Under the pieces are notes generated by a model. It was not told where the DNA came from. It worked only from the letters and a program-made list of their open reading frames with translations, and did no database searches. From Deltaproteobacteria bacterium (GTDB taxonomy: Bacteria > Desulfobacterota > Deferrimicrobia > Deferrimicrobiales > Deferrimicrobiaceae), in contig JACRMU010000004.1 in NCBI GenBank assembly GCA_016219515.1, forward strand, positions 1 through 53,861: a stretch of 53,861 nt of DNA, written 5' to 3'. The translations under genes were made by a program, and so were the position numbers. Every line of letters starts with the position of its first letter. Position 1 is the stretch's first letter. Of the stretch, positions 7,182-32,616 are shown one piece after another.

Positions 7182-8098
7182 GGAGGTACCTCCTCTCGCG
7201 CATGGCGCAGCTCGTTCCCGTCGTCTTCGGCGTCGTGACGATCGTCTTCCTCCTCATTCACCTCATCCCCGGCGACCCCGTGGAGATCATGCTCGGCGAA
7301 AGCGCGGTGGCGGCGCAGAAGGAGGAACTGCGCAGGGACCTGAAGCTCGACCGCCCGATCGCCGCGCAATACGCGGAATTTCTGGGCGGGCTGGCCACGG
7401 GCGACCTGGGCGTCTCCTTCCGGAGCCGCGAGCCGGTGCTGCGCGAGATCCTCTCCCGGTTCCCCGCCACCCTGCTCCTGGCGGCGGCATCGCTCCTCGT
7501 GGCGGTTTCGATCGCCGTGCCCCTGGGAATCCTCTCGGCGATGCGCCGGCGTTCATGGCTCGACCATCTCTCCGCATTCCTGGCGATGCTGGGGCTTTCC
7601 ATGCCCAACTTCTGGCTCGGGCCGCTGCTGATTCTCGTCTTCTCCATCCACCTGGGGCTTTTCCCGGTGGGGGGATACGGCACCGCGAGGCACCTCGTTC
7701 TTCCGGCGCTCACGATGGGGACGGGGATGGCGGCGATCCTGATGCGGATGCTGCGGTCCTCGCTCCTCGAGGAGATCCATCGGGAATACGTCCGTGCGGC
7801 GTCCGCGAAAGGGCTTTCCCGGCGGGCGGCCGTCCTGCGCCACGCCCTCGGGAACTCGTTGATCCCCGTGCTCACGGTCCTCGGGCTGCAATTCGGCGCC
7901 CTGCTCGCCGGCAGCGTCATCACCGAGACGATCTTCTCCTGGCCGGGGATCGGCCGGCTCACCATCCAGGCGATCGACGCCAGGGACTACCCGCTCGTCC
8001 AGGGATGCGTCCTGTTCATCGCCCTGTGCACCGTGGCGGTGAACCTTGCGACGGACCTGCTCTATTCCCGCCTCGACCCGAGGATCCGGTATGAGTGA
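7178..8098 (+). CDS. ABC peptide transporter permease (DppB/OppB type)
   Basis: This is the last 306 codons of track ORF 5600..8098. ATG at 7178 overlaps the binding-protein stop. Starts MRRYLLSRMAQLVPVVFGVVTIVFLLIHLIPGDP and carries the EAA loop REYVRAASAKGLSRRAAVLRHALGNSLIP. Confidence 0.9.
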   Translation: MRRYLLSRMAQLVPVVFGVVTIVFLLIHLIPGDPVEIMLGESAVAAQKEELRRDLKLDRPIAAQYAEFLGGLATGDLGVSFRSREPVLREILSRFPATLLLAAASLLVAVSIAVPLGILSAMRRRSWLDHLSAFLAMLGLSMPNFWLGPLLILVFSIHLGLFPVGGYGTARHLVLPALTMGTGMAAILMRMLRSSLLEEIHREYVRAASAKGLSRRAAVLRHALGNSLIPVLTVLGLQFGALLAGSVITETIFSWPGIGRLTIQAIDARDYPLVQGCVLFIALCTVAVNLATDLLYSRLDPRIRYE

Positions 8099-8939
8099 AC
8101 GGGGCCCGGCCTCCCGCGGGCGCATCGCGGCGCGGTTCCTCCGGCACCGGGGAGCGGCGGCGGGGCTCGCCGTCGTGGCGGCGCTTCTCCTCGTCGCGCT
8201 GCTGGCGCCCCTCCTCTCCCCTTTCGACCCCAACGCCCAGGACCTCGACTCCGGGCTGTCCGGCGCCTCCGCCTCCCACTGGCTGGGCCAGGACAAGCTC
8301 GGCAGGGACCTGCTCTCCCGCCTGCTCCACGGATCGCGGATCTCGGTCTCCGTCGGTCTCGGCACGGTCGCCGTCTCCCTTTCCATCGGCCTCCTCGCGG
8401 GATGCGCATCGGGATTCTACGGAGGACGGACGGACCATCTCTTCATGCGGCTGTGCGACGTGCTGATGGCCTTCCCGGGGATCCTCCTGGCGATCGCGAT
8501 CACCGCGGTCCTTGGCCCCTCTTTGCGCAACGTGCTGATCGCGCTGTCGCTCCTCGGATGGGTCGGCTACGCCCGGCTCATCCGGGCGCAGGTGATGAAG
8601 GTGAAGGAGATGGAGTTCGTGGAATCGGCGCGCGCGTCGGGGAGCCCCCCCGCCAGGATCCTGGTTTCCCACGTTTTGCCGAACGCGCTTTCCCCCATCA
8701 TCGTGGAATCGACGTTCGGGATCGCCCGCGCCATCGTCGCGGAGGCGGGCTTGAGCTTCCTGGGCCTGGGCGTCGCGCCTCCGGCGCCGTCCTGGGGGGC
8801 GATGATCAACGAGGGGAGGCATTTCCTTTTCGTCGCGCCGCACGTCGCCGCCGTGCCCGGGCTGGCGATCATGGCGACGGTGATGGCATTCAACCTGATC
8901 GGAGACGGATTGCGGGACGCGATGGACGTGCGGGATTGA
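8091..8939 (+). CDS. ABC peptide transporter permease (DppC/OppC type)
   Basis: ORF 8046..8939 trimmed to ATG 8091, which gives an 8-nt overlap with the upstream stop. HWLGQDKLGRDLLSRL N-terminal motif and EAA loop EFVESARASGSPPARILVSHVLPNAL. No ATPase gene follows. Confidence 0.9.
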   Translation: MSERGPASRGRIAARFLRHRGAAAGLAVVAALLLVALLAPLLSPFDPNAQDLDSGLSGASASHWLGQDKLGRDLLSRLLHGSRISVSVGLGTVAVSLSIGLLAGCASGFYGGRTDHLFMRLCDVLMAFPGILLAIAITAVLGPSLRNVLIALSLLGWVGYARLIRAQVMKVKEMEFVESARASGSPPARILVSHVLPNALSPIIVESTFGIARAIVAEAGLSFLGLGVAPPAPSWGAMINEGRHFLFVAPHVAAVPGLAIMATVMAFNLIGDGLRDAMDVRD

Positions 8940-9015: not shown

Positions 9016-10443
9016 ATGGCGAAATCGGGCAAGAAAGGCATGACCCGCAGGGAGTTCGTCAAAGCCGCCGGCATCGGGACGCTCGCGATGGGAGTTGCGC
9101 CGGCGATCATCCTCCCCGGACGCAGCCATGCGGCCGGGAAGGAGCTCAAGATCCTCGTCTGGTCCCACTTCGTCCCCCGGTTCGACAAGGAATGGTACGA
9201 CAATTACGTGAAAGCCTGGGGACAGGCCAACGGCGTGAACGTCACCGTGGACCACATCGGCCTCGCTGAGATCCCCTCCCGCACCGCGGCGGAAATCTCC
9301 GCGGGCAAGGGGCACGACCTGATCGAGTGGATCGCTCCGCCGTCCCAGTTCGAGCCGAGCGTGCTCGACCTTTCCGACGTCGTGGCGGCGGCGGAAAAGC
9401 GGTTCGGCAAGATGCACCCCCTCTGCAAGAGAACTTCCTACAACCCGAACACGAAGAAGTACTACAGCTTCGTCCCCGGCTGGACCATCGATCCCGGCTG
9501 CTACCGGAAAAGCCTGTGGACCAAGGCGGGAAAGCCGAACGGACCGGTGACGTGGGAAGACCTGATCACCTATGGGGGGAAGATCAAGAGGGAACAGGGG
9601 ATCCAGCTGGGAATCGGCCTGTCCCAGGAGCTCGACTCGAACATGGCGGCCCGGGCGCTGCTCTGGTCCTACGACAGCAGCATCCAGGACGCGAACGAGA
9701 ACGTCGTACTGAACAACCCAAAGACGGTCGAGGCCGTCGCCTACATGGCACGCCTGTACAAGGAGGCGATGGTTCCCGAAGTCTTCGCCTGGACGGCGGT
9801 TTCCAACAACCAGGCGCTCATCGCGGGGAGGGCCGCGTACATCCTCAATTCCATCTCGGCCTATCGCTCCGCGCAGAAAGAAGTGCCGGAGATCGCCAAG
9901 GACGTCTACTTCACCCCGGCGCTGAAAGGCCCGAGGGGGACGGGATTCAGCTGCGAGCACGTGATCTACAACTACATCGTTCCCAAGTACTCCCCGAACG
10001 CCGACACGGCGAAGAAGTTCCTCCTGGACCTGGTGGCGAACTACGACCAGGCGATGTACGCGAGCGAGCTGTACAACTCTCCGGCCTTCTTCGATGCGCC
10101 GATCCCCTCGGGAAGCCGCGGGTACGCAGCGGTGAAGGGAGCGAAGAAGTTCCGGGACCTCCACAACGCATGGTTCAGCAACGACCCCTTCGCGCTTCCG
10201 GGGGAGGAGAAAGGGAAGCTGGCGGTGCTCAAGGATGCGGAGAAGTGGAGCACCAACGTGGGGCATCCGGGACCCGCGAACCCGGCGGAGGGCGAGGTCT
10301 TCGCCACCTTCATCCTGCCGAACATGATGGCCAACGCAGCAAAGGGCATGAAGCCGGAGCAGGCGGTGGCGGAGGCGGAAAAACAGGTTAAGGCGATCTT
10401 CAAGAAATGGCGTGAGAAGGGGCTGGTCGGCGGGAAGACATAA
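9016..10443 (+). CDS. ABC transporter substrate-binding protein, family 1 (sugar type), twin-arginine signal
   Basis: ORF 8962..10443 trimmed to ATG 9016 behind GGAGGAAGGAGGG. TAT signal MTRREFVKAAGIGTLAMGVAPA..SHAAG. MalE/UgpB-like extracellular solute-binding character. Confidence 0.85.
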   Translation: MAKSGKKGMTRREFVKAAGIGTLAMGVAPAIILPGRSHAAGKELKILVWSHFVPRFDKEWYDNYVKAWGQANGVNVTVDHIGLAEIPSRTAAEISAGKGHDLIEWIAPPSQFEPSVLDLSDVVAAAEKRFGKMHPLCKRTSYNPNTKKYYSFVPGWTIDPGCYRKSLWTKAGKPNGPVTWEDLITYGGKIKREQGIQLGIGLSQELDSNMAARALLWSYDSSIQDANENVVLNNPKTVEAVAYMARLYKEAMVPEVFAWTAVSNNQALIAGRAAYILNSISAYRSAQKEVPEIAKDVYFTPALKGPRGTGFSCEHVIYNYIVPKYSPNADTAKKFLLDLVANYDQAMYASELYNSPAFFDAPIPSGSRGYAAVKGAKKFRDLHNAWFSNDPFALPGEEKGKLAVLKDAEKWSTNVGHPGPANPAEGEVFATFILPNMMANAAKGMKPEQAVAEAEKQVKAIFKKWREKGLVGGKT

Positions 10444-10461
10444 GCGTCAAGGCAAGGACGC

Positions 10462-10502
10462 GCGGGGGCGGGGAATTTCTCGCCCCCGCCGCATTTCTTT
10501 TT
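10462..10502 (+). terminator. intrinsic terminator/attenuator after the binding-protein gene
   Basis: GCGGGGGCG (10462-10470) pairs perfectly with CGCCCCCGC (10481-10489) across a 10-nt loop, followed by CGCATTTCTTTTTAAT. Confidence 0.5.
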
Positions 10503-10576
10503 AATGTTTCCGATTAGATCATCGTACGGAACAAGCCGAATCGATAATAAATAAAGCACCGGGGGCTGCTGGCGCC

Positions 10577-11608
10577 ATGGCACGGGTCGAAATCCGCGGA
10601 GTCTCGAAAACGTTCGGGGAGGTCCGGGCGGTCGACCACGTGGACCTCGAGACCGTCGAGGGGGAATTCCTGGTCCTCCTGGGTCCTTCCGGCTGCGGCA
10701 AGACCACGCTCCTCCGGATGGTCGCGGGGATCGAGGAGCCCACCGCCGGCGACATCATCATCGACGAACAGGTCGTGACGAACCTGCCGCCAAGGATGCG
10801 GAACATCGCCATGGTGTTCCAGAGCTACGCCCTCTATCCGCACATGTCGGTCTACCGGAACATCGCCTTCCCCCTCCGCACCCGTGGAGTGGACAAGGCG
10901 ACCATCCGGAAGAAGGTCGAGTGGGCGGCGGGGATGTTCGGGATCGGGCGCCTGCTCGACCGCAAGCCCCGCGAGCTCTCCGGGGGAGAGCGCCAGCGCG
11001 TCGCCCTGGCCCGCGCGATGGTGCGGGAGCCGAGCGTGTTCCTCCTCGACGAGCCCCTCTCCAATCTCGACGCCCTTCTGCGCGCTTCGGCGCGTGAGGA
11101 GCTGCGGCAGTTCCAGAAGCGCGCGGGAGTCACCACGATCTACGTCACGCACGACCAGGTGGAGGCCATGGGCCTCGGGGACCGGATCGTGGTGATGAGC
11201 AAGGGGAAGATCCGGCAGGTGGGGACCCCCATGGAGATCTACCATTGGCCCGCCGACACCTTCGTGGCCACCTTCGTGGGCTCCCCCCCCATGAACCTGC
11301 TGGGGGAGGACGACATCCTGACCGGGTTCCGTCCCGAGACGTTCCTTCCGGCCGACCTGGTGTACGGAACCGAAGGAATCGCCACCTACCCCTTTGAAGT
11401 GACCTGGATGGAGTACCTGGGGGCGGAGAGACTCCTCTATGGAAACGTCGGGGAGAAGTCCCACGCACGACACGTCGTTTCCCGGCTTCCTGGCAGCGTG
11501 AGCCTTCCCATCGAGGCGGGGAAGACGTACCCCTTCGCCGTATCCCGCACCGATCTCCGGTTCTTCGACCGGAAGAGCGGGCTGCGGACGGACCGGAGCC
11601 CGGCGTGA
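10577..11608 (+). CDS. ABC sugar transporter ATP-binding protein (MalK/UgpC/MsmX type)
   Basis: 343 aa. Walker A GPSGCGKTT, signature LSGGERQRVALARA, Walker B VFLLDEPLSNLD, plus a C-terminal MalK-type regulatory extension. Confidence 0.95.
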   Translation: MARVEIRGVSKTFGEVRAVDHVDLETVEGEFLVLLGPSGCGKTTLLRMVAGIEEPTAGDIIIDEQVVTNLPPRMRNIAMVFQSYALYPHMSVYRNIAFPLRTRGVDKATIRKKVEWAAGMFGIGRLLDRKPRELSGGERQRVALARAMVREPSVFLLDEPLSNLDALLRASAREELRQFQKRAGVTTIYVTHDQVEAMGLGDRIVVMSKGKIRQVGTPMEIYHWPADTFVATFVGSPPMNLLGEDDILTGFRPETFLPADLVYGTEGIATYPFEVTWMEYLGAERLLYGNVGEKSHARHVVSRLPGSVSLPIEAGKTYPFAVSRTDLRFFDRKSGLRTDRSPA

Positions 11609-13416
11609 GCGGAACCGTCGGGGAACAGGCCGTGAACGGGACGATCGAGGATCGCGGCGTGAACGGCGGCGAGCGGGGAGCCATCCGGGACCGGGTGGGG
11701 CTTCTCTCCAAGCTGATGATCGCTCCCGCGGTCTTTTACGTCGCGGCGATGATCGGCTTCCCCTTCGTCCTGGCCCTCCTGTACAGCATGAGCGACGTGA
11801 CGACCGGCGACCCCGCTCTCCACCTCGTTGGCCTTCGGAACTTCCGGGCCATCCTCGAAGACCCCGTCTTCCTGCTCTCCATGAAAAACACCTTCTTCTT
11901 CGCTATCGTCTCGCAGGTGCTGGTCATCCTCCTTTCGAGGGTGATCGCCACCGCCCTGATGAAGGAGTTCCGCGGGAAGTGGCTGGCGCGCTTCCTCATC
12001 ATGCTCCCCTGGACGGCGCCGATTTCGCTCGGGACGATCGGATGGCTCTGGATGCTCGATTCCATCTTCAGCCCCTTCGACTGGGTCCTCCGCTATGCGG
12101 GGCTGCTCGGCACGCCTGGCGCGCTGCTGGGGCCGGACCTGAACCTGTATTGGCTGGGCGTGCCCGCTCTCGCGATGGCCTCCGTGGTGCTCGTCCACGT
12201 GTGGAGGATCCTGCCGCTGGCGACCGTGATCCAGCTGGCGGGCCTCTCTTCCATCCCCCGGGACCTCCTCGAGGCCGCGGAAGTCGACGGGGCCACACCG
12301 TGGCGCAGGACGCTGGAGATCACGATCCCGCTGACGCTCCCCATCATCAGCATCGCCTTCCTCTTCGGTCTCGTCTTCACCTTCACCGACGTGACCGTCG
12401 TCTACGTCCTGACCCGGGGCGGTCCGATCCACAGCACGCAGGTGCTCTCGACATGGACCTTCTTCAAGGGGATCGAGGGGGGGGACCTCGCCCAGGGGGC
12501 GGCCATCTCCCTCTTTCTCTTCCCCGTCCTTGCGGGGATCGCGGCGGATGGCCCGGAAGAGCGAGGTGGTGTGATGAAGAGCGTGCGGAAGATGCTGGGC
12601 CGCGGCGGCCTCTACACGGTGGTGGGATCCTTCGCGTTCTTCGGAGCGTTCCCGTTCTATTGGATGGTCATCGCGACGTTCAAGCGGGACCACGACCTGT
12701 TCAACCCCGTGGCCAACCCGTTCCTGTTCAACGAGCCCCCCACCCTGGACCACCTGAAACTCCTGCTGTTCGACACGCACTTCGTGACGTACCTCGCGAA
12801 CACCTTCTGGGTCGGCGCGGCCGTCGTCGTGATCACGCTCGCGGCCGCGGTCCCCGCGGCTTACAGCCTGGCGCGGTGGGCGAGGGGGTGGGGGGAGACG
12901 CTGGGGATCGGGATCTTCCTCACCTACCTCGTTCCGCCCACGATCCTGTTCATCCCTCTTTCCCGGTTCGCCGGCGCCCTGGGGCTGCAAGAATCGCTCT
13001 GGTCGCTCATCCTCATCTACCCCACCTTCACGATCCCCTTCTGCACCTGGCTCCTCATGGGGTTCTTCAAGACGATCCCCAAAGACATCGAGGAGCAGGC
13101 GATGATCGACGGGCTCTCCCGGCTCGGGGCGATGACGAGGGTCGTTCTGCCGCTGGGGATCTCGGGGATCCTGACGGTCGTCGTGTTCGCCTTCACCCTC
13201 TCCATGCACGAGTTCATCTACGCCCTCACCTTCATCTCCGTGTCGGTGAAGAAGACCGTATCGATCGGCGTCCCCACGGAGCTCGTGCGCGGGGACGTGT
13301 TCCAGTGGGGGCCGCTGATGGCCGGCGAACTCATCGCCAGCATCCCCGTGGCCGTCGTCTACCCCTTCTTCCTGGACCGGTTCATCGCCGGTTTCACCAT
13401 GGGGGCCGTGAAGTAG
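11605..13416 (+). CDS. fused MalF/UgpA-type + MalG/UgpE-type ABC sugar permease (single 603-codon frame)
   Basis: GTG start overlaps the ATPase stop (GTGA). The N-terminal half has EAA loop LEAAEVDGATPWRRTLEITIPL. The second module, from Met at 12574, has EEQAMIDGLSRLGAMTRVVLPL. There is no in-frame stop between the two halves. Confidence 0.8.
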   Translation: MSGTVGEQAVNGTIEDRGVNGGERGAIRDRVGLLSKLMIAPAVFYVAAMIGFPFVLALLYSMSDVTTGDPALHLVGLRNFRAILEDPVFLLSMKNTFFFAIVSQVLVILLSRVIATALMKEFRGKWLARFLIMLPWTAPISLGTIGWLWMLDSIFSPFDWVLRYAGLLGTPGALLGPDLNLYWLGVPALAMASVVLVHVWRILPLATVIQLAGLSSIPRDLLEAAEVDGATPWRRTLEITIPLTLPIISIAFLFGLVFTFTDVTVVYVLTRGGPIHSTQVLSTWTFFKGIEGGDLAQGAAISLFLFPVLAGIAADGPEERGGVMKSVRKMLGRGGLYTVVGSFAFFGAFPFYWMVIATFKRDHDLFNPVANPFLFNEPPTLDHLKLLLFDTHFVTYLANTFWVGAAVVVITLAAAVPAAYSLARWARGWGETLGIGIFLTYLVPPTILFIPLSRFAGALGLQESLWSLILIYPTFTIPFCTWLLMGFFKTIPKDIEEQAMIDGLSRLGAMTRVVLPLGISGILTVVVFAFTLSMHEFIYALTFISVSVKKTVSIGVPTELVRGDVFQWGPLMAGELIASIPVAVVYPFFLDRFIAGFTMGAVK

Positions 13417-13457
13417 GCGAAGGACGGGAGGACCCGGCATGGTAGAGTGCTGACGGA

Positions 13458-14603
13458 ATGAGTCCTTTGCGGAAACAAGCCGGGTGCACACCGTTCCTGA
13501 TGGCAGGGTTCGAGGGGACGTCCGTCCCGCATGGGCTGGCCGCACGGCTGCGCGACGGCACGGCGGGAGGCGTCGTCCTCTTCTCCCGGAACCTGGAAGG
13601 ACCGAAGCAGGTGAAGGAGATGTGCCGGGAGATCCGCGCCGCGGCGGGCAGGAGCCGCCCCGCCCCGCTGATCGCCATCGATCAGGAAGGGGGACGGGTC
13701 GCAAGGCTCAAGGATCCGGGCTTCACGCAGTTCCCCCCCGCGCGAAGCTACTCCCTGTTCTGCTGCCACGCCGAACGGGCGGCCGAGTCGGCGGGCGCGG
13801 CGATCGCCCTGGAACTTTCGGCCGTCGGGATCGACGTCAACTTCGCGCCCGTGCTGGACGTGGACAGCAACCCGAAAAACCCCGTGATCGGCGACCGGGC
13901 TCTCGGAAGCGACCCGGAAACCGCGGCGCGCCTTGGAATTGCGTTCCAGCGCGGTTCCCTGTGCGCCGGGATCCTCCCCGTCGGGAAGCATTTCCCCGGC
14001 CACGGCCACACGGATGCGGACTCCCACGAGGAGTTGCCCGTCGTGCGCAGCTCCCGCGGGACGCTTTTTCGCCGGGACCTTCTCCCTTTCCGGAGGGCCA
14101 TCCGCGCCGGCATCCCCGCGCTTATGACCGCCCACGTCCTCTACCCGGCGCTCGACAGGGAGTACCCCGCCACTCTTTCCCGGAAAATTCTTAAAAATCT
14201 CCTGAGGGAAAATCTTCGGTTCCGCGGGGTGGTGTTCTCCGACGCGCTGGAGATGAAGGCCGTCTCCCTGCGGTATGGAACCGGGCCGGCGGCCGTGCGG
14301 GCCCTCTACGCGGGATGCGACGCGGTCCTGGTGTGCCGGGGGGAAAAGGAGCAGTCGGAAGCGGCGGAGGCGCTCTCCCGCGAATGGCGCGACAAGGCGG
14401 ATTTCAGGATTGCGGTTTCGCGGGCTGCCCGCCGCCTTGCCCGTTTTCGGGCGCTGGCATCGGCATCGGGGGCCCGGCGGGCGTCCCTTCGGTTGGCGGG
14501 GGCGAAGAAGCATCGGGAACTGGCGGCGCTTCTTTGGGAACGATGGGAAAGTATTGGGCGAACATCTGCGGCCTATATATCGAATAATATTGGAGAACGT
14601 TGA
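13458..14603 (+). CDS. nagZ: beta-N-acetylhexosaminidase (GH3)
   Basis: 381 aa. Motifs IAIDQEGGRVARL, VNFAPVLDVD, GKHFPGHGHTDADSHEELP and VVFSDALEM. The C-terminal ~60 aa overlap slt on the opposite strand. Confidence 0.9.
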   Translation: MSPLRKQAGCTPFLMAGFEGTSVPHGLAARLRDGTAGGVVLFSRNLEGPKQVKEMCREIRAAAGRSRPAPLIAIDQEGGRVARLKDPGFTQFPPARSYSLFCCHAERAAESAGAAIALELSAVGIDVNFAPVLDVDSNPKNPVIGDRALGSDPETAARLGIAFQRGSLCAGILPVGKHFPGHGHTDADSHEELPVVRSSRGTLFRRDLLPFRRAIRAGIPALMTAHVLYPALDREYPATLSRKILKNLLRENLRFRGVVFSDALEMKAVSLRYGTGPAAVRALYAGCDAVLVCRGEKEQSEAAEALSREWRDKADFRIAVSRAARRLARFRALASASGARRASLRLAGAKKHRELAALLWERWESIGRTSAAYISNNIGER

Positions 14604-16665
14604 GGAAAACCCTCCGTAGATAGAAACGGGTCTCCCGGTAGGTCACGCTTTCCAGGAAGAGCGCGGGATCTTTCTTCCCCTCCCCCCACCACTTCGCCAC
14701 CGCCGCCTCCCCCGCGTTGTAGGCGGCCACCGCGCGGAGGTAATCTCCCCCGTACCCCCGCACCAGGCGAGACAGGTACGCGGCCCCCAACGTCACGTTC
14801 AGCTGCGGCTTCAGGAGATCCTTGCGCCGCGGCTTCTTCAATTTCTCCTTGCGGGCGACCTCGGCGGCCGTGCGGGGCAGGAGCTGCATCAGCCCCACGG
14901 CACCCGCGGGAGACAGGGCGTTGTGCTGGAACTGGGACTCCTGGCGGATTATGGAATGGAGCAGGAGGGGATCCATGCCCGACCTCTTCCGGTCGCAGTC
15001 CCCGACGATCTCGGGAGCGAGGGGAAACTGGATCCGGTCGATCAGCTCCACCGTCGCCGCATTGTTGGGGACGTTCGTCGTCTCCCGGATGGCGCCCCGC
15101 AGGTCCCCCGAGAGGTAACGGATGAGCCCCGACGTCCCTCCTTCCGCCAGCCCGATGGCCTTCCGCACCACCTGCCGGTCGATGCAGGACGCCTCGAGGA
15201 CCGCGTATTCCGGGATCCCCAGGTGGACCAGCCGGTCGACCCGCCGGATCCTTTCCGCGTCCTCCTTCCCCCACCCGGCCTTCCGGACCTTCTCCCAGAG
15301 CCGACCCTTTTCCTTGTCGCACGTCCCGGTCTCGCCGGAAGACGGGGCATTCATCATCCCGTACGGGTCCCGTCCTGAAATCCTGACGGCGAACAGCGCA
15401 TACGGGCCCGCCCCGGGATCCCCCGCGAGCGCGGCGAATCCTTCTTTCGCCTCGTCCTTCCTGCCCGCATCGAAGAGCGATTTCGCCTTCCAGTAGGAAT
15501 GCCGCGCCTTCTCCACGGAGGAAAACCCCGTCTTCTCTCCCGCCGCGAACAGGGCGGCGGCTTCCTCGAACCGATTCCGCCGGTAGTGGCCGAAGGCGTA
15601 ACGGAAGATCGCCTCCTGGCGGATCGCCTCGTCCTTCGCTTCGCGCAGCGCGCCGAAGAGCCCGGTCGCGGCGGCCTCGTCCCCCTCTTCCTCGGCGAGC
15701 CACGCCGCGAGATACCTGGCGCGCTCCGCGGTTCCGGGCCGGACGCTCCCCTCTCTCGCGATCGCAAGAAACGCGGCCCGCGCATCTCCCAGCTTCCCCG
15801 CCTTCCAGTCGACCCGGGCCCGCAGGAACCTCACCTCGTTGCGGAAGGCCGGCGGCGCTCCGGGCAACGCCCGGTCCAGCAGCGCTCTCGACCCCGCCGT
15901 GTCCCCCAGCTTCCGGAGGAGCTCCGCGGAATCGAGGAGGACCGTGTAATACTCCTCGGACGGGGAAAACTTCCGGAGGGCGTCCGAGTAGACCTCCTTC
16001 GCCGCCTCGCTCTCCGCCGCGCGGGAGAGCGCTTTCCCGAACCTTCCGTAAAACGAGACCGGAAGCCCCCATTCCGTCCACTTCCCTTCCGTCCGCCACC
16101 GCTGGAGCCGTTCCATGGACAGGATCGCCGCCTCCTGGGCGGTGTAGGCGAAGAAGTTCTCCAGGTGCGCTTCCGCGGCGCGGACGGAGGGGCCGTCCGC
16201 CTCGAGAAGGCGGGCCGCGACGTACCCTTCCTCCGCCTTGCGGCCGTTCCCCGCCACGTTTCCGTGCGAGTGCTCGAAATGGACGCGGGCAGCGGGAAGG
16301 TCGTTGTCGGCGACGGCGGCGTAGGCCAGCGCATGGGAAAGGTACGGAAGGAGCGGAGAGGCGGGGAACGCCTTCGAGAGGTTGTCGAAAACCGACGCCG
16401 CTTCCCCGCGGAGCCCCTCCCTTGCGAGGGACAGGCCCGTGAAGTACAGGACATAGTCTCCCAGGTCGTACTCCGCGGGCTCGATGTTCCGGAACGACGC
16501 TCTCGCCTCGGCGTTCTTCTCTTCCGAAAGAAGGTTCCACCCTTTCAGGAACGCGGCGTCGAAAGGAGAGGCGGCGGCAACGGGGAGCGGGGGAACCAGA
16601 AACAGGACCGCAAGGATCGACACGGCGCCGAGGCGGCGTGCAAGGGACCGGGTTTTTCGCGTCAC
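14404..16665 (-). CDS. slt: soluble lytic murein transglycosylase (Slt70-like)
   Basis: 753 aa. Signal peptide (AVLFLVPPLPVAAASP), a long alpha-superhelical repeat region, and an SLT domain with the catalytic Glu motif IIRQESQFQHNALSPAGAVGLMQLLP..AAYNAGEAAV. Pro-rich C-terminal tail. Confidence 0.9.
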   Translation of the reverse strand: MTRKTRSLARRLGAVSILAVLFLVPPLPVAAASPFDAAFLKGWNLLSEEKNAEARASFRNIEPAEYDLGDYVLYFTGLSLAREGLRGEAASVFDNLSKAFPASPLLPYLSHALAYAAVADNDLPAARVHFEHSHGNVAGNGRKAEEGYVAARLLEADGPSVRAAEAHLENFFAYTAQEAAILSMERLQRWRTEGKWTEWGLPVSFYGRFGKALSRAAESEAAKEVYSDALRKFSPSEEYYTVLLDSAELLRKLGDTAGSRALLDRALPGAPPAFRNEVRFLRARVDWKAGKLGDARAAFLAIAREGSVRPGTAERARYLAAWLAEEEGDEAAATGLFGALREAKDEAIRQEAIFRYAFGHYRRNRFEEAAALFAAGEKTGFSSVEKARHSYWKAKSLFDAGRKDEAKEGFAALAGDPGAGPYALFAVRISGRDPYGMMNAPSSGETGTCDKEKGRLWEKVRKAGWGKEDAERIRRVDRLVHLGIPEYAVLEASCIDRQVVRKAIGLAEGGTSGLIRYLSGDLRGAIRETTNVPNNAATVELIDRIQFPLAPEIVGDCDRKRSGMDPLLLHSIIRQESQFQHNALSPAGAVGLMQLLPRTAAEVARKEKLKKPRRKDLLKPQLNVTLGAAYLSRLVRGYGGDYLRAVAAYNAGEAAVAKWWGEGKKDPALFLESVTYRETRFYLRRVFLNVLQYYSIYRPQMFAQYFPIVPKEAPPVPDASSPPPTEGTPAGPPMPMPAPENGQGGGQPAKPQS

Positions 16666-16744
16666 GCCTGTACGGGTCCTCCTCCGGAGAGCAATGATGA
16701 TATTATCGCGTTATGCGCCGTCTTTCACAAGGAACCGCGCCCTG

Positions 16745-17590
16745 ATGGAGCTGTCGCTATCGACCCACCTGTTCGTCTTCCGTCCGCTCGACGAAGCGAT
16801 CGCCTCCCTCTTTCCGCGGTACGGCTTCCCGGGAGCGGAACTTTGGGCCATGCCCCCGCACTTTCCGTACGACGACCCCGTCGAAACCGAACGGATCGCG
16901 GATCGGCTGGCGTCGAACGGAGTCCGGATCCGAAGCGTCCACGCTCCGCTCTACCCCGACGTCCGGACGTACCGGGAAGACCGGTGGTACTCCCTCTCTT
17001 CCGAAGAGGAGGAGCACCGGCAGTCTTCGGTGGCCGCCACCGCCCGCGCGGCGGGCTGGCTCGCAAACCATGGAGGCGGGACGATCGTCGTGCACACCAC
17101 CTTCCCCTCCGAAAACTGGTACCCAAGGCGCTGGGCCGCCTGCCTCTCTTCCCTGAACGAGCTTCTCGCGCTGGTCCCCGAAAACGTCCGGTTTGCCGTG
17201 GAGAACACCCCTCTGGCCTCCGGGAGGGTGGAGACCATCCTGGACATCGTGCACCGATATCCCCCCGAGCGTGTCGGCGTCTGTCTCGACCTTGGGCACG
17301 CCCACATCCAGGAAAACGTCCTCAACGCGATCCGCGCCTGCGCCGGCCGGCTGATCCACGTGCACGCATCCGACAACCATGCGATCCGCGACGACCACTT
17401 CGTCCCGGGGCGCGGGTCGGTGCCCTGGGACCGCGCCATCCCCGCCCTTCGGGAGATCGGCTTCGGCGGGCCGTTCACGATCGAACTGCGCGATTACACC
17501 CGCGGGGAGAACGCGCCGTACCGGAACTTCGAGGAGATCCTGTCCGAATGCCGCGACGCGCTCGACGGGATGTTCGGCGGGAGGACATAA
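16745..17590 (+). CDS. xylose-isomerase-like TIM-barrel protein (sugar phosphate isomerase/epimerase family)
   Basis: ORF 16484..17590 trimmed to ATG 16745 (MELSLSTHLFV); an alternative ATG lies at 16694. Metal-ligand pattern of the family: AVENTP, CLDLGHAH, HVHASDNH, FTIELRD. Confidence 0.8.
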   Translation: MELSLSTHLFVFRPLDEAIASLFPRYGFPGAELWAMPPHFPYDDPVETERIADRLASNGVRIRSVHAPLYPDVRTYREDRWYSLSSEEEEHRQSSVAATARAAGWLANHGGGTIVVHTTFPSENWYPRRWAACLSSLNELLALVPENVRFAVENTPLASGRVETILDIVHRYPPERVGVCLDLGHAHIQENVLNAIRACAGRLIHVHASDNHAIRDDHFVPGRGSVPWDRAIPALREIGFGGPFTIELRDYTRGENAPYRNFEEILSECRDALDGMFGGRT

Positions 17591-17660
17591 GTGCTCGCTT
17601 GCAACCATTCGGCGGCGTCTCCGATCGGCCGTCCCGAAAGGCGCTGCGCCTCCGGGCGTC

Positions 17661-18785
17661 ATGCCGATCGGTGTCCGTAATCATGTGTCGGGACACCAAG
17701 TGACTCTTCCCGTGGACGAGCGGACGGTGGCGGCGGCGCTTTCCACCCTCTTCCGCGCCCCGACGCGGCCGGTCCGCATCTCCGAGCTTGCCGGCGACGC
17801 CTCCACGCGCCGATATTTCCGAATCGCCCTTCCCGCGGGCACACCGATTTCCTCCCTCGTGCTGATGCTGTACCCGGACGAGATCCCGCCCGGAGAGGAG
17901 CTTCCGTTCGTCAACGTCCACCGGTACCTGAAGGGCGCAGGGGTTCCCGTCCCCGCAAGCCACCTGGCGGTCCCGGAGGCCAGGCTTCTTTTCCTGGAGG
18001 ACGCAGGCGATACGATGCTCGAGGGTGCGGTGCAATCGGCAACGTCCGAGGAAGAGGTTCTCCCCCTTTACGAGGACTGCGTGGAAACCCTCGTCCGCAT
18101 CCAGCGGGATGGAACGAAGGCTCTCGACGGGAACGCCATCCCGTCGCGGCTCGCCTTCGACGTAAAGAAATTTTCCGAGGAGATCGACTTCTTCTTCGAG
18201 CACGCCGTCCGCGAGTACGGGGAAATCCCCCTTTCCGATTCGGAAGAGCGGGCGATCGAAGACCGGTTCCTGCCGTTCCTGGAAGAGATGGCGGCGCTCC
18301 CCCGCGTCCTCGCCCACCGCGACTACCACAGCCGCAACGTGATGGTGATGGACCGTTCGCCCGGCGGCCGACGCGGTCTGCGGATCCTCGACTTCCAGGA
18401 CGCCCGGATGGGGAACGCCTTCTACGATTTGTGCTCGCTCCTTCGCGACTCCTACGTGGTTTTATCGGAAAACGCGGTCGCCCGCCTCGGTTACGCGTAC
18501 CGGCACGCATCGACTTCGGAGCTGAGGACGGCATGGGGAGATCCCGCGGCCTTCGAATTCCGGCTGGATGCCGCGGCGCTCCAGAGAAACGTGAAGGCGA
18601 TCGGGACGTTCGGCAACCAGGCGCGCAACCGCGGGAAACGCTTCTACCTCCGCTTCATCCCGCCGACGGTGGCGCACCTTGCGGCGAATTTCGAAAGGAA
18701 CCCCCGGATGCGCCCGCTGGCGAGGAAGCTTCGCCCCATCCTCGACGCTCTCTCGTCGAAGGCCGCGGAGGAGGCACCCCCTTGA
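17661..18785 (+). CDS. amgK: APH-fold sugar kinase, AmgK-like (anomeric MurNAc/GlcNAc kinase candidate)
   Basis: ORF 17379..18785 trimmed to ATG 17661; an in-frame GTG at 17700 is an alternative. GDASTRRYFRI, catalytic loop LAHRDYHSRNVMV and Mg site ILDFQDARMG. Its stop overlaps the start region of the next gene, a nucleotidyltransferase. Confidence 0.7.
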   Translation: MPIGVRNHVSGHQVTLPVDERTVAAALSTLFRAPTRPVRISELAGDASTRRYFRIALPAGTPISSLVLMLYPDEIPPGEELPFVNVHRYLKGAGVPVPASHLAVPEARLLFLEDAGDTMLEGAVQSATSEEEVLPLYEDCVETLVRIQRDGTKALDGNAIPSRLAFDVKKFSEEIDFFFEHAVREYGEIPLSDSEERAIEDRFLPFLEEMAALPRVLAHRDYHSRNVMVMDRSPGGRRGLRILDFQDARMGNAFYDLCSLLRDSYVVLSENAVARLGYAYRHASTSELRTAWGDPAAFEFRLDAAALQRNVKAIGTFGNQARNRGKRFYLRFIPPTVAHLAANFERNPRMRPLARKLRPILDALSSKAAEEAPP

Positions 18786-18790
18786 AAGGT

Positions 18791-19684
18791 ATGATCCTGG
18801 CCGCGGGGCTCGGGACGCGCCTGCGCCCTCTTTCCTACGAACTGCCCAAGCCGATCGTGCCGGTCCTGGGCCGCCCCCTCTGTTCCTACAACATGGAGTT
18901 CCTCTCGCGTTCCGGCGTCAAGGCGTTCGTCATGAACCTCCACCGTCAGCCGAAACTGATCCAGCAGCGGGTGGCGGGCTGGGCGGGGAGGAAACTCCCG
19001 GTGGATTACACCGCCGGGGACTTTCTCAAGGAGGGGACGTTCGTCACGGCGAACTCGGACACCGTCGTCCGCTTCCCCTTCGCCTCCGCCCTCGCTTTCC
19101 ACCGGGAGAAGCGCGCCCTTGCCACCCTCGTGCTCTTTCCCGACCCCGACCGGCGATACACCCCGGTGCGGATCGACGAGGAGGGCCGGATCGCCGGCTT
19201 CGGGGCCGCCGCGGGAGGCAGCCGATCCGGCTTCTACACGGGGTTCCAGATCGTAGAGCCGGATCTCCTCCGGGAAATCCCCCCGGGCCCGTCGTGCATC
19301 GTCCGGGAGACGTACCGGCGGCTCGCAGCCGGCGGAGCTCCCCTCTTCGGCTTCCTCTCCTCCGGCACCTTCCGGGAGTTCGGCTCTCCGTCGGACTACC
19401 TGCGGGAGACGCTCGCGCTCCTTTCCGAGAATCCGGGGGGAAAGGCGGGGCGTTCTCCCGGTCCGTCCGAATTCGCGATCGATCCCCCCGTCTTCGTCTC
19501 TCCGAGGGCGAAGATCGCCGCCGGAGCCCGGATCGGTCCCGAGGCGGTGATCGAGGAGGGCGCCGTCGTGAAGGAAGGGGCCTCCGTCACCCGGGCCATC
19601 CTCTGGCCGGAAGCCGTCCTCGGCCAAGGGCAGGAAATCCGCCAGGCCATCCTCACCCCGCGGCGCCGTATCGATATTTCCTGA
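18791..19684 (+). CDS. murU: NTP-transferase, MurU-like (MurNAc-1-P uridylyltransferase candidate) with C-terminal left-handed beta-helix
   Basis: ORF 18431..19684 trimmed to ATG 18791; TTG 18782 (MKGMILAAG) overlaps the kinase stop and is an alternative. MILAAGLGTRLRPLSYELPKPIVPV nucleotide-binding motif. Hexapeptide-like tail KIAAGARIGPEAVIEEGAVVKEGASV. Confidence 0.7.
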   Translation: MILAAGLGTRLRPLSYELPKPIVPVLGRPLCSYNMEFLSRSGVKAFVMNLHRQPKLIQQRVAGWAGRKLPVDYTAGDFLKEGTFVTANSDTVVRFPFASALAFHREKRALATLVLFPDPDRRYTPVRIDEEGRIAGFGAAAGGSRSGFYTGFQIVEPDLLREIPPGPSCIVRETYRRLAAGGAPLFGFLSSGTFREFGSPSDYLRETLALLSENPGGKAGRSPGPSEFAIDPPVFVSPRAKIAAGARIGPEAVIEEGAVVKEGASVTRAILWPEAVLGQGQEIRQAILTPRRRIDIS

Positions 19685-19694
19685 GAATCCCCCC

Positions 19695-20855
19695 GTGCCC
19701 GAAGGAAAGCATATCGGCCTGCAGGCCCTGTTGTTCTGGCTCGTGGCGTCCGCCTTCTCCACGATCTACATCACCCAGCCCGTTCTCCCGGTGCTCCGCG
19801 CGGAGTTCGGGGTGAGCGCGTCGACGGCCTCCCTCACCATTTCCGCGGTCATCCTGGGGATCGCACTGGCGAACCTTCCGTTCGGAATGCTGGTGGACCG
19901 CTACCCGATACGCCCCATCATCCTTCTTGGGGGTTCGGTCATCGCGGCATGCGGGTTTTTCTGCGCCGCCTCCACGGACCTGTCGCTCCTGATCGCCGCG
20001 AGGTTCGTTCAGGGGCTCTTCGTTCCCTCCCTCACCACGTGCCTGGTCGTGCACCTGGTCCGCAGCCTTCCGCCGGACCGGCTGAACGTGGTGACGGGCT
20101 CGTACGTCTCGGCCACGGTGGTGGGCGGGCTCGGAGGGCGGCTCCTGGGAGGATGGATCCACCCCCCGCTGCATTGGCGGTACGCCTTCGTCACCGCGTC
20201 CGTCCTTCTGCTGGCGGCGACCGCGGCCGCGGCCCGCTGGCTGCCGGAAGGCGAAGGAGAACGGGAGACGCCGCGGGAGATCGAGGGGTTCGAGCGCCTG
20301 ATCCGCCGCCCCGAGCTGCTGCGCATCTTCTTCGTGGCCTTCGGGGCGTTCTTCGTCTTCTCGTCCGTGTTCAACTACCTGCCGTTCTATCTTGCCGCGC
20401 CGCCCTTCAACGCATCCACGCAGGTCATCACCCTTGCCTATCTCTCCTACCTGGTCGGGGCGTTGACCGGTCCCGCCGCGGGGACCTTGAGCAACCGGAT
20501 CGGCAACGGCGCCACCATGGCCCTGGGCTCCGCGGTGTTCGCCGGGTCGATCCTGTTGACGTTCGTCCCTTCGCTGCCGGTGATCGCCGCAAGCCTCGCG
20601 GGGGTGTGCGCAGGTTTCTTCGCGATCCACTCGGCGGCCGCGGGCTCCCTGAACCTGCGGCTCTCCTCCGGCAGGGGGCGGGCCAACTCCCTCTACGTGC
20701 TGTTCTATTACCTGGGGGGCTCGGCCGGGATCACCGCGAGCGGGTACGCATATCATTCCGCCGGCTGGCGGGGCGTCGCGTCGCTGGGGATCCTCGTTCT
20801 CCTCCTCCCTTTCGCCACGGGTCTCGCGGAGATGCGGGAGAGAAAACTGTTGTAG
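19695..20855 (+). CDS. MFS transporter
   Basis: 386 aa. GTG start 10 nt after the preceding stop. About 12 hydrophobic segments and the MFS loop motif FGMLVDRYPIRP. Confidence 0.85.
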   Translation: MPEGKHIGLQALLFWLVASAFSTIYITQPVLPVLRAEFGVSASTASLTISAVILGIALANLPFGMLVDRYPIRPIILLGGSVIAACGFFCAASTDLSLLIAARFVQGLFVPSLTTCLVVHLVRSLPPDRLNVVTGSYVSATVVGGLGGRLLGGWIHPPLHWRYAFVTASVLLLAATAAAARWLPEGEGERETPREIEGFERLIRRPELLRIFFVAFGAFFVFSSVFNYLPFYLAAPPFNASTQVITLAYLSYLVGALTGPAAGTLSNRIGNGATMALGSAVFAGSILLTFVPSLPVIAASLAGVCAGFFAIHSAAAGSLNLRLSSGRGRANSLYVLFYYLGGSAGITASGYAYHSAGWRGVASLGILVLLLPFATGLAEMRERKLL

Positions 20856-20930: not shown

Positions 20931-22163
20931 ATGGAGAAGGAAGGAAGAAACGGCGCTTCGGGCCCCGGCAGGGGAATTCCCATCGACCGGAGAAGCGCCC
21001 TTCGGCTCCTCGCCGCGGCTGCTGCAGCCATCGCGGCCAGGCCCGCGGTCCGCGGGGCGGAGACGTTCGCCGCGGCCGCCGCCCCCTCCCGCGGAGCCGG
21101 GGAAACCAGGCCTTTGGGCAGGACGGGGATCGCGGTATCCACCGTCGGCATGGGAGCGATGATCACCCGGGAATCCGACGTGATCCGGTACGCCGTCGAC
21201 CATGGGGTGAACTATGTCGACACCGCGGACTGCTACATGGGGGGAGAGAACGAACGGATCGTGGGACGCGCCCTCAAGGGAATCCGCAACAAGGTGATCC
21301 TTGCGTCGAAGGTCCACATCGCCCCCGTCGACCGGATGATCCAGTCCGTCGAGAAAAGTCTGAAGTCCCTCAACACCGACGTCATCGACATCATGCAGCT
21401 TCACGGGATCGGCACCGAGGGGGAGGTCGTCAACGGATATGCGCGCGAAGCCCTTCGGAAACTGATCGACCAGGGAAAGGTCCGCGTCCCAGGGGTGACC
21501 ACCCACAGCGGACAGGAAACGGTCGTACGGGCCGTGATGAAGCACGGATTCTACAAGACCGTCCTTGTCGCGTACAACTTCCGCTCCGATGCGGGGCTGA
21601 AGGCGGCCCTGCGCAAGGTCTTCGCCGGAGCGACCGGACTTTCCGCCGCGATCCGCGATGCCGGCGCCGCGGGGCTCGGGGTGATCGCCATGAAAACTCA
21701 AGCGGGGGGGTACACGATGGAACGGGGAGCGTTGAGCCCCCACCAGGCCGCTCTCGCGTGGGTCCTTGAAAACCCCGGGGTCGCAACCACGATCCCGAGC
21801 ATGGTCAGTTACGCCCAGGTAGACGAGAACCTTTCCGCGAGCGGGAAGCGGCTCGGCTGGGGAGGGAAGAAAGCTCTGGAACTGTACTCCCGGGCCATCG
21901 GGGACCGGCACTGCGGGCTTTGCGGACAGTGCAAGGGCTCCTGCCCCTCGGGGGTCGACGTCCAGGACGTCCTGCGGTCCCTGGCCTATTACGATGGGTA
22001 CGGGCAGGCGGACCTTGCGAACCGGTCGTATCGGGAGCTTGCGGACGGCCGGAACGCTCTTCCCTGCTTCTCCTGCGGCACCTGCGCGGTCCAATGCCGG
22101 CTGGGGCTTCCGGTGGGACGGCTTGCCCGCAGGGCGCACGGCCTGTTGTCGCGGACGGCGTGA
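20931..22163 (+). CDS. aldo/keto reductase with twin-arginine signal and C-terminal Cys-cluster (Fe-S) domain
   Basis: 410 aa. TAT-like IDRRSALRLLAAAAAAIAARP. AKR core (VNYVDTADCYMGGENERIVG, VILASKV, IDIMQLHG). C-terminal CGLCGQCKGSCP and CFSCGTCAVQC motifs. Confidence 0.85.
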   Translation: MEKEGRNGASGPGRGIPIDRRSALRLLAAAAAAIAARPAVRGAETFAAAAAPSRGAGETRPLGRTGIAVSTVGMGAMITRESDVIRYAVDHGVNYVDTADCYMGGENERIVGRALKGIRNKVILASKVHIAPVDRMIQSVEKSLKSLNTDVIDIMQLHGIGTEGEVVNGYAREALRKLIDQGKVRVPGVTTHSGQETVVRAVMKHGFYKTVLVAYNFRSDAGLKAALRKVFAGATGLSAAIRDAGAAGLGVIAMKTQAGGYTMERGALSPHQAALAWVLENPGVATTIPSMVSYAQVDENLSASGKRLGWGGKKALELYSRAIGDRHCGLCGQCKGSCPSGVDVQDVLRSLAYYDGYGQADLANRSYRELADGRNALPCFSCGTCAVQCRLGLPVGRLARRAHGLLSRTA

Positions 22164-22183
22164 CGTTCCGCGTGGGAGGACGA

Positions 22184-23086
22184 ATGCGGCTCTACCGCGT
22201 TGCCGCCTTCGGCGCTTCGCTTCTCATCGCGTCCTTCGCTGCGCAGGCGGCCGCGGGGAACGGAAACGATCCGCTGTTTTCACGGCTTGCGGAGCGATCG
22301 TGGATCCTCGCGGAGCCCGTGCGAACGTTCTCCTCCGCCAACCTCTACGAGGAGATCGATGGGGAGGCCGAGCTTTTTCTCCCCTACGGGTTCCGGGAGC
22401 TTGCGGTCGCATATCTCTCCGGGAAAGCCGGGGCCGGCGCCCAGCTCCGCCTCGAGATCTACCGGCACGGCTCGCCGCGGGACGCTTTCGGAATCTACAG
22501 CCAGCACCGCTTCCCCGGACAGGAGACGATTCCGGTCGGCCCTTCGGAGGCGATCGTGTCCGACGCTTCTCTCGATTTCTTCCGGGGGGAATTCTTCGTT
22601 CGCATCCGCGCCGCTTCTCCCGCAACCACGCGGAAGGACATCGCCGATCTCGCGCGCGAAGCATCGGGGCTGATCGAAGGCACCGGCGCTCCGCCGCCGG
22701 AGGCCGGATCGCTCCTCGTAAAGAGTTTCGTCCCCGGGACTCTCGTCTACCAGAAGAGAGCCGTCCTTGGGGACGATGCGCTCGCTCCCGGGTTCGAGGC
22801 GAAGTTCTCCGCCGGGAACATATCCGGAAGTCTGTTATTGCTGTTGCCGCGCGACGGCGATCCCCCCGCGGTCTCCTCGAAACGAATTGCCGGCAGGATT
22901 CCGGGAATCGAACGGACCTCCGAAGGCCTGTATCGCGCGCCGATTCCCGGCGGAACGCTGTGGCTTAAGGAGTCCGGCCCCTACCTGTTGGGGGTGTCGG
23001 GGAAACTCTCCAGGGAGAATGCGGAACCGGTCCTTTCCGAAATGGCGGAAAACCTCTCCTTGAGACGGCGGAAAGAATCGCCGTAG
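22184..23086 (+). CDS. secreted hypothetical protein
   Basis: ORF 21920..23086 trimmed to ATG 22184 behind GGGAGGA, 20 nt after the AKR stop. Signal peptide MRLYRVAAFGASLLIASFAAQAAAG. No recognisable catalytic motif. Confidence 0.6.
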   Translation: MRLYRVAAFGASLLIASFAAQAAAGNGNDPLFSRLAERSWILAEPVRTFSSANLYEEIDGEAELFLPYGFRELAVAYLSGKAGAGAQLRLEIYRHGSPRDAFGIYSQHRFPGQETIPVGPSEAIVSDASLDFFRGEFFVRIRAASPATTRKDIADLAREASGLIEGTGAPPPEAGSLLVKSFVPGTLVYQKRAVLGDDALAPGFEAKFSAGNISGSLLLLLPRDGDPPAVSSKRIAGRIPGIERTSEGLYRAPIPGGTLWLKESGPYLLGVSGKLSRENAEPVLSEMAENLSLRRRKESP

Positions 23087-32602: not shown

Positions 32603-32616
32603 TTTTCCCTATGCCC

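Follow-up and report, generated by a model that had tools for sequence, protein, structure and literature searches.

A putative gene cluster for cell-wall turnover and salvage around an AmgK-family kinase in the Deferrimicrobiaceae

Reuse of N-acetylmuramic acid (MurNAc) from the bacterial cell wall follows two established routes, one based on MurQ and the other on AmgK and MurU. The locus described here raises the question of whether a related route is encoded in the Deferrimicrobiaceae. It lies in a stretch of 53,861 nucleotides (nt), hereafter the window, which makes up positions 1 to 53,861 of contig JACRMU010000004.1 from a Deltaproteobacteria bacterium placed in this family by GTDB (GCA_016219515.1; 2.09 Mb, 154 contigs, 97.5% complete). 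The names carried by close homologues likewise indicate Candidatus Deferrimicrobiaceae. Here, the peptidoglycan-processing genes nagZ and slt stand beside genes for a triosephosphate isomerase (TIM) barrel protein, a kinase of the aminoglycoside phosphotransferase (APH) fold and a sugar-1-phosphate nucleotidyltransferase (NTase). An initial annotation had suggested that the surrounding 12 kb, including two transporter systems, may be one functional island for amino sugar uptake and reuse, with the kinase and the NTase as an AmgK/MurU pair. Our comparative analysis makes it reasonably probable that a smaller set of five genes, centered on an AmgK-family kinase, serves turnover and salvage of the cell wall; its NTase is not a canonical MurU.

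The G+C content of the window (about 65%) gives rise to many spurious open reading frames (ORFs). Genes were called from codon-position G+C content and family matches. The first gene of the cluster, nagZ (13458-14603, plus strand), encodes a beta-N-acetylhexosaminidase of family GH3 and passes the cut-off of its family model (NF003740, 283 bits against 207; Glyco_hydro_3, 245 bits). It is convergent with slt (14404-16665, minus strand), which encodes a soluble lytic transglycosylase with an SLT domain at residues 560-664 (98 bits) and a TPR-like N-terminal part matching TPR_16; the NCBIfam equivalog cut-offs are not reached. The 3' ends of the two genes overlap by 200 nt (14404-14603). Such a tail-to-tail overlap is not unique to this genome and measures 167-179 nt among the called genes of relatives (L007, L010). 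On its other side, slt is divergent from the TIM-barrel gene (P0245, 16745-17590, plus strand), with a gap of 79 nt between them. The TIM-barrel protein is xylose-isomerase-like (AP_endonuc_2, 112 bits), and its ATG at 16745 fits the length of 281 amino acids (aa) found in most homologues. The kinase gene (P0001, 17661-18785, plus strand) starts 70 nt downstream of the TIM stop codon, and the NTase gene (P0002, 18782-19684, plus strand) starts at a TTG at 18782 that overlaps the kinase stop by 4 nt and has GGAGGAGG upstream. Homologues of the NTase begin with MKGMIL at the codon of this TTG. In a scan for promoters and terminators, no matches rose above chance. All genes and junctions described by the initial annotation were found again, including the identities of nagZ and slt.

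How much of this layout belongs together can be judged from related loci, which were gathered by exact-protein look-up, by a pattern scan of named genomes with the kinase motifs [FL]xHRD[YF]HSRN and [ILV]DFQDA, and from 20 genomes of the family in 10 genera, and which were scanned with profiles built in this analysis. All 20 family loci, across the 10 genera, keep the same order, i.e., nagZ, slt on the opposite strand, the TIM gene, the kinase gene and the NTase gene. The five-gene order is also found in a distant Deferrimicrobia genome (L027) with a kinase only 39% identical. Given its presence in 20 of 20 loci, this core arrangement is not a chance layout. In contrast, a sugar ATP-binding cassette (ABC) system is found between a Dpp-type importer and nagZ in six of the 20 relatives and partially in one more, and a major facilitator superfamily (MFS) gene follows the NTase in only two of them, as well as in L022. 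The transporters are therefore variable, lineage-specific additions, and the conserved unit consists of the five genes nagZ, slt, TIM, kinase and NTase, which is smaller than the proposed 12-kb island.

Kinase and NTase genes are adjacent in nearly all of the 80 loci examined. The TIM, kinase and long NTase genes are also linked in Acidobacteriota, where about 20 loci have them as NTase-kinase-TIM; the order TIM-kinase-NTase is seen in L082 (Nitrospiria) and L063. These three genes are thus a module shared by three or more phyla that have been little studied, and the proposal that the TIM-barrel enzyme is an uncharacterized component of the locus holds up. That its linkage survives changes in gene order across phyla argues for a function shared with the kinase and the NTase. 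Directly upstream of the trio, Acidobacteriota carry a gene with a CYTH domain (triphosphate tunnel metalloenzyme; L029:4200-4907, and the contig found with P0257), which may be a fourth component of the module in that phylum.

The kinase has an APH domain (77.5 bits) with the catalytic motifs HRDxHxxN and DFQDA, and residues H219, R220, D221, N226, D244 and Q246 are invariant in the alignment. Its best match in the PDB is 3CSV (E 4e-30). In NCBIfam it matches AmgK models only, at 102 and 96 bits, both of which are below the cut-offs (NF045759, 550; NF045698, 500). However, these cut-offs are narrow, since reference kinases that lie beside MurU or LptD in Acinetobacter, Legionella and Xanthomonas reach only 246-263 bits on the AmgK model. 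The Neisseria protein is the only one to pass (606 bits), while the Nitrospira and Acidobacteriota kinases score 168 and 143 bits, respectively. The reference loci were taken from chromosomes filed as plasmids in PLSDB; with the exception of that of Neisseria, the reference AmgKs were recognized from their gene context and not from experimental work. A maximum-likelihood tree of 53 sequences unites all 51 AmgK-like kinases, including the window kinase, in a single ingroup set apart from ThiK and SrkA of E. coli (Shimodaira-Hasegawa-like approximate likelihood-ratio test, SH-aLRT, 91), and the proteobacterial and Bacteroidota reference AmgKs are nested inside this ingroup. Both this tree and that of the NTases come from a quick search, and their sequence sets include long branches. 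In the kinase tree, the outcome that the initial annotation had named as a refutation, clustering with a non-MurNAc family, is not seen for the kinase; the backbone is weak and the outgroups are remote. By its family matches and its position in the tree, the kinase probably belongs to the AmgK family, and it is a probable anomeric kinase for MurNAc and/or N-acetylglucosamine (GlcNAc). The kinase half of the supposed AmgK/MurU pair is therefore supported.

A few other observations concern this kinase family and its neighborhood. An AmgK-like kinase is fused to TsaE in Sinorhizobium meliloti (L115:2506-4020), and that of Bacteroides finegoldii has a C-terminal RapZ-like part (L117:3031-4461). 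In E. coli K-12, the APH-family kinase gene thiK lies immediately upstream of nagZ (L118:3261-5121), which echoes the kinase-nagZ neighborhood. Several PLSDB records (NZ_CP077849.1, NZ_AP026896.1, NZ_CP119142.1 and others) are whole chromosomes of 2-5 Mb, and this is a trap for plasmid statistics.

The second half of the pair is not supported. While single-domain MurU has about 225 aa, the NTase has 300 aa in the window and 314-316 aa in relatives, and a C-terminal left-handed beta-helix (GMPPB_C/Hexapep) is added to its catalytic NTP_transferase domain. On the MurU model NF045761 (cut-off 250), the window allele reaches 57-61 bits and an intact allele (P0005) 97 bits, compared with 238-314 bits for reference MurU and 178-181 bits for the NTase partners of related Nitrospira kinases. 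Those Nitrospira NTases are short, and MurU is the best-matching family in the single one scanned (L037). Even when only the catalytic domain of the window NTase is considered, MurU of Pseudomonas putida (4Y7T) ranks sixth among the solved matches. A tree of the catalytic domain places the long NTases of Deferrimicrobia, Acidobacteriota and further deltaproteobacterial metagenome-assembled genomes in a clade of their own (SH-aLRT 96), with reference MurU in another (support 93) and the short Nitrospira MurU also apart from the long NTases; the deeper branches of this tree are unresolved. Judged by architecture and tree, the NTase is not a canonical MurU. The combination of an NTP_transferase domain with a left-handed beta-helix is shared with GMPPB, plant VTC1 and the UDP-glucose pyrophosphorylase 8X7S, but unlike these the cluster NTase adjoins an AmgK-family kinase, and the sequence identity is low. 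A second match to the MurU model, on contig C4 (L002:1-1469), was rejected, as it consists of the first 151 aa of a generic NTase resembling GDP-mannose pyrophosphorylase at a contig end. On this contig of 1.5 kb, a 339-aa ORF without a Pfam or NCBIfam match lies just upstream of the fragment and overlaps it by 4 nt.

Compared with Logan contig L006 (run SRR12113394), the window NTase has an exact in-frame deletion of 42 nt with its junction at 19012/19013, apart from which the two are 100% identical over 1,673 nt; the loop is intact in L006. The deletion takes out 14 residues, VEPEILGTGGGIRN, which hold the conserved LGTGGG nucleotide loop. The NTase encoded in the window is therefore probably inactive and the last step of the pathway lost here, unless the deletion represents a minority allele or an assembly artefact. 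Since MurA is present in the genome, the cell could afford to lose a salvage step.

The TIM-barrel enzyme is the least familiar member of the cluster. The family is tight, with the best 120 matches listed all at least 63% identical, and the gene is present in 51 of the 54 family genomes that are at least 85% complete. Its AlphaFold model is confident, with a predicted local distance difference test score (pLDDT) of 89.5. Foldseek and VIA searches with this model gave generic matches at the superfamily level only, and the ESM Atlas returned the same family only. Alignment by hhalign and MAFFT places E153, D182, H185, H207, D216, H218 and E247 opposite E145, D179, H182, H216, D229, H231 and E261 of the E. 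coli endonuclease IV Nfo. H66 and H117 stand at the ends of strands 3 and 4, as do H69 and H109 in Nfo, a correspondence of position alone. In Nfo, the trinuclear site has nine metal ligands, H69, H109, E145, D179, H182, H216, D229, H231 and E261, in the numbering of Hosfield et al. (1999). The E. coli Nfo sequence has the expected residue at all nine positions. Among 29 kinase-linked TIM homologues, 27 are identical at the nine equivalent positions and the other two differ at one position each. The E. coli epimerases YcjR and UlaE, in contrast, keep only an E/D/H/E core and lack the D-x-H pair and the extra histidines of the TIM family.

Such a ligand set could mean that the TIM protein is simply the endonuclease IV-type DNA repair enzyme of the cell, standing beside salvage genes by chance. 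Its best solved sequence match, MJ1311 (PDB 3WQO, E 7e-12, Z 24.7), is listed as the predicted endonuclease IV homologue of Methanocaldococcus jannaschii (PMC2770678). We consider this explanation very improbable. No nfo model is among the NCBIfam matches of the protein, which is thus not an Nfo orthologue, and hhalign against Nfo gives a probability of 28% over half the protein. Moreover, the linkage to the kinase and NTase genes is kept in three phyla through changes in gene order, and the gene context is one of sugar salvage and not of DNA repair or, as for CbiR, of cobamide genes. The overall structure is also nearer to sugar epimerases than to Nfo. MJ1311 itself is annotated as "D-tagatose 3-epimerase-like" and shares the conserved H/E/D/H/H/D/H/E motifs in the aligned part, but it is an uncharacterized archaeal protein from a host without murein and thus permits no transfer of function. 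Endonuclease IV, with its three-metal site, belongs to the same superfamily as the TIM protein and is a phosphodiesterase. So is CbiR (PMC7733943), another TIM-barrel member of the AP_endonuc_2 superfamily and the best NCBIfam match of the TIM protein (42 bits). The conserved ligand set and this phosphodiesterase kinship make the TIM enzyme more likely a phosphoester hydrolase than a plain epimerase.

What such an enzyme might act on depends on the other recycling genes in the genome. In these metagenome-assembled genomes, absences were scored by six-frame searches with hidden Markov models. The genome of the window encodes MurA, AnmK (394 bits, cut-off 387), an Mpl-like ligase (379 bits, cut-off 388.7) and AmpG (490 bits, cut-off 350), the last on contig C55, away from the cluster. 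MurQ was not found in this genome (best 30 bits), and neither was a haloacid dehalogenase (HAD) protein at the level of MupP; the best candidate scored 83.5 bits on model NF009696 (cut-off 359). This model was identified through a scan of Gph from E. coli, a protein other than MupP that itself scores 109. Hence, of the four genes that the initial annotation proposed to look for, anmK and ampG are present, and murQ and mupP were not found by the profile search of this genome. A gene of the SIS family beside anmK was considered as a divergent MurQ and ruled out, as it is GmhA/DiaA-like. The inventory fits an anabolic MurNAc route. For Beta- and Gammaproteobacteria, it has been reported that a genome carries MurQ or AmgK-MurU but not both (PMC5371407).

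With AnmK present and both MurQ and a MupP-level protein missing from this genome, the TIM enzyme could be a functional analogue of MupP that dephosphorylates the MurNAc-6-phosphate made by AnmK and so provides MurNAc for the kinase, i.e., a Pseudomonas-type route with a non-homologous phosphatase. The alignment of seven of the nine endonuclease IV ligands, the conservation of all nine positions and the match to CbiR agree with a phosphatase of this kind. However, the TIM gene does not track AnmK, the source of MurNAc-6-phosphate, which weakens the idea. Across the 54 family genomes, AmpG was found in 52 and TIM in 51, compared with five for AnmK and none for MurQ; in 22 Acidobacteriota genomes with the kinase, AnmK was found in none, MurQ in 19 and TIM in 15; and the 11 Nitrospira genomes have AnmK and lack both MurQ and the TIM gene. 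We therefore regard a MupP analogue as quite unlikely. The family counts also mean that a step handling anhydro-MurNAc is missing in most of the family. The TIM enzyme might fill it as a new recycling enzyme that replaces AnmK, and with it MupP, by acting on 1,6-anhydro-MurNAc through hydrolysis, phosphorolysis or elimination. This is a tentative idea with a low probability, and we know of no chemistry that links an endonuclease IV-type metal site to opening of the anhydro ring. TIM as a replacement for AmpD was also considered and rejected, as Amidase_2 is patchy across 50 genomes without complementarity. A literature search returned no study that connects a TIM barrel with AmgK or AnmK, and none on wall recycling in Deferrimicrobia.

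In the pathway we propose, the products of slt, nagZ and the distant ampG, three genes identified by their family matches, would provide the substrates: Slt would cut glycan strands into 1,6-anhydro-muropeptides, AmpG would import them and NagZ would release GlcNAc. The AmgK-family kinase would then phosphorylate MurNAc and/or GlcNAc at the anomeric position, and the beta-helix-tailed NTase may convert the sugar-1-phosphate to a nucleotide sugar for wall synthesis, most likely UDP-MurNAc and/or UDP-GlcNAc. The TIM enzyme, with its putative endonuclease IV-type three-metal site, would supply or process the sugar substrate; foremost among its conceivable roles are those of a phosphoesterase for sugar phosphates and of an enzyme that lets 1,6-anhydro-MurNAc be used where there is no AnmK. 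The scheme resembles the AmgK/MurU route of P. putida in that an AmgK-family kinase gene is translationally coupled to a sugar-1-phosphate NTase gene, and in that AmpG and NagZ are encoded in the genome but MurQ is not; as MurA is present, the route of the cluster would be a salvage bypass. Unlike in P. putida, the NTase has a C-terminal beta-helix and lies in a clade apart from MurU, the module includes the TIM barrel as a third conserved gene, and there is no MupP-type HAD phosphatase, with most relatives also lacking AnmK. The module also differs from described AmgK/MurU loci by its position beside nagZ and slt instead of lptD/surA or tsaE.

Several findings weigh against this pathway. Of all AmgK-like groups, the kinase diverges the furthest (102 bits), and the backbone of its tree is weak, with ThiK and SrkA as very distant and only outgroups. 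Among solved structures, GDP-mannose and UDP-glucose pyrophosphorylases match the NTase best (85-105 bits), the protein lies outside the MurU clade, and its sequence reveals neither the sugar nor the nucleotide that it uses. The nucleotide loop after the second strand, (E/Q)xxxLGTGG, is kept in 85 of 87 related NTases and is absent from the window allele. In Acidobacteriota, the trio is found among housekeeping genes, away from nagZ and slt. Finally, no AmpD-type Amidase_2 was found in the 97.5%-complete genome of the window or in six related genomes, so the step to free anhydro-MurNAc in the textbook route is unaccounted for.

Alternatively, the kinase and NTase could activate a sugar unrelated to peptidoglycan recycling, e.g., of the mannose, glucose or heptose type, for a surface glycan, with the TIM protein as an isomerase or epimerase that makes this sugar and the synteny with nagZ and slt inherited without functional meaning. 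The NTase matches mannose-1-phosphate guanylyltransferases and a UDP-glucose pyrophosphorylase best in both NCBIfam and the PDB, the long NTases and MurU fall in separate clades, and the Acidobacteriota trio is not beside cell-wall genes. In addition, the TIM model is structurally nearest to ketose 3-epimerase-like proteins and related sugar enzymes, including MJ1311 (Z 24-25, against 19-20 for endonuclease IV). On the other hand, the kinase matches no family but AmgK and has the reference AmgKs nested in its clade, closely related Nitrospira kinases pair with short NTases that score 178-181 bits on the model of MurU, their best family, and the linkage to nagZ and slt is still found where the kinase is only 39% identical (L027). 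A simple epimerase is also made less likely by the D-x-H pair and the additional histidines of the TIM family, which YcjR and UlaE lack. Activation of a surface sugar is thus unlikely in our view, and cell-wall salvage is the reading we prefer.

The genes on either side of the cluster vary more. Upstream of nagZ, the sugar ABC system consists of a sugar-type (CUT1-like) solute-binding protein with a twin-arginine translocation signal (9016-10443, plus strand; SBP_bac_8, 74 bits; SBP_bac_1, 67 bits; TAT_signal_seq), an ATPase of the UgpC/MalK type (10577-11608, plus strand; ABC_tran, 117 bits; NF008653, 409 bits against a cut-off of 432) and a permease ORF of 603 aa (11605-13416, plus strand) in which MalF-like and MalG-like parts are fused, with two BPD_transp_1 stretches. 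The nearest solved structure to the binding protein is MalE3, at only E 7e-12. In relatives, the permease is encoded by two separate genes (L010-L012, L124, L132-L135), and the 603-aa ORF reflects either fusion of the two genes or a frameshift introduced in sequencing. The permease ends 41 nt before nagZ, in line with the approximately 40 nt first noted. This importer is an accessory part of the cluster. Further upstream lie a Dpp/Opp-type binding protein and two permeases (5616-8939) without an ATPase gene nearby, and in 12 of the 20 family loci such Dpp-type genes directly abut nagZ. By analogy, it is conceivable that this block is a muropeptide importer like YejBEF-YepA of Agrobacterium.

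Downstream, the MFS gene (P0004, 19695-20855, plus strand) starts at a GTG at 19695, 10 nt past the end of the NTase gene, and encodes a Bcr/CflA-like transporter of the DHA1 efflux type (MFS_1, 155 bits; TIGR00710, 93 bits against a cut-off of 201). An efflux-type protein of variable occurrence, in a genome whose true AmpG is encoded elsewhere, does not bear out the idea that the MFS transporter, or the likewise variable ABC system, is a component of a salvage island. The MFS gene is followed by genes for an aldo-keto reductase, which has 4Fe-4S motifs at its C-terminus, and for a DUF6599 protein (20931-23086); in L010-L012, both come directly after the NTase. At 30453-32608 on the minus strand, BacA (undecaprenyl-diphosphatase) and a mutase of the PGM/PMM family, possibly GlmM, are encoded, and their place is kept in most relatives. 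There are thus more wall-related genes in the neighborhood.

For the family, the TIM gene is a concrete candidate for the missing anhydro-MurNAc step, and the three proteins of the module are directly testable. If the TIM enzyme replaces AnmK, there would be a third route of MurNAc reuse in Deferrimicrobiaceae, Vicinamibacterales and some Nitrospirota. If the module makes UDP-MurNAc, the bypass of MurA and MurB that underlies fosfomycin tolerance would have a wider range.

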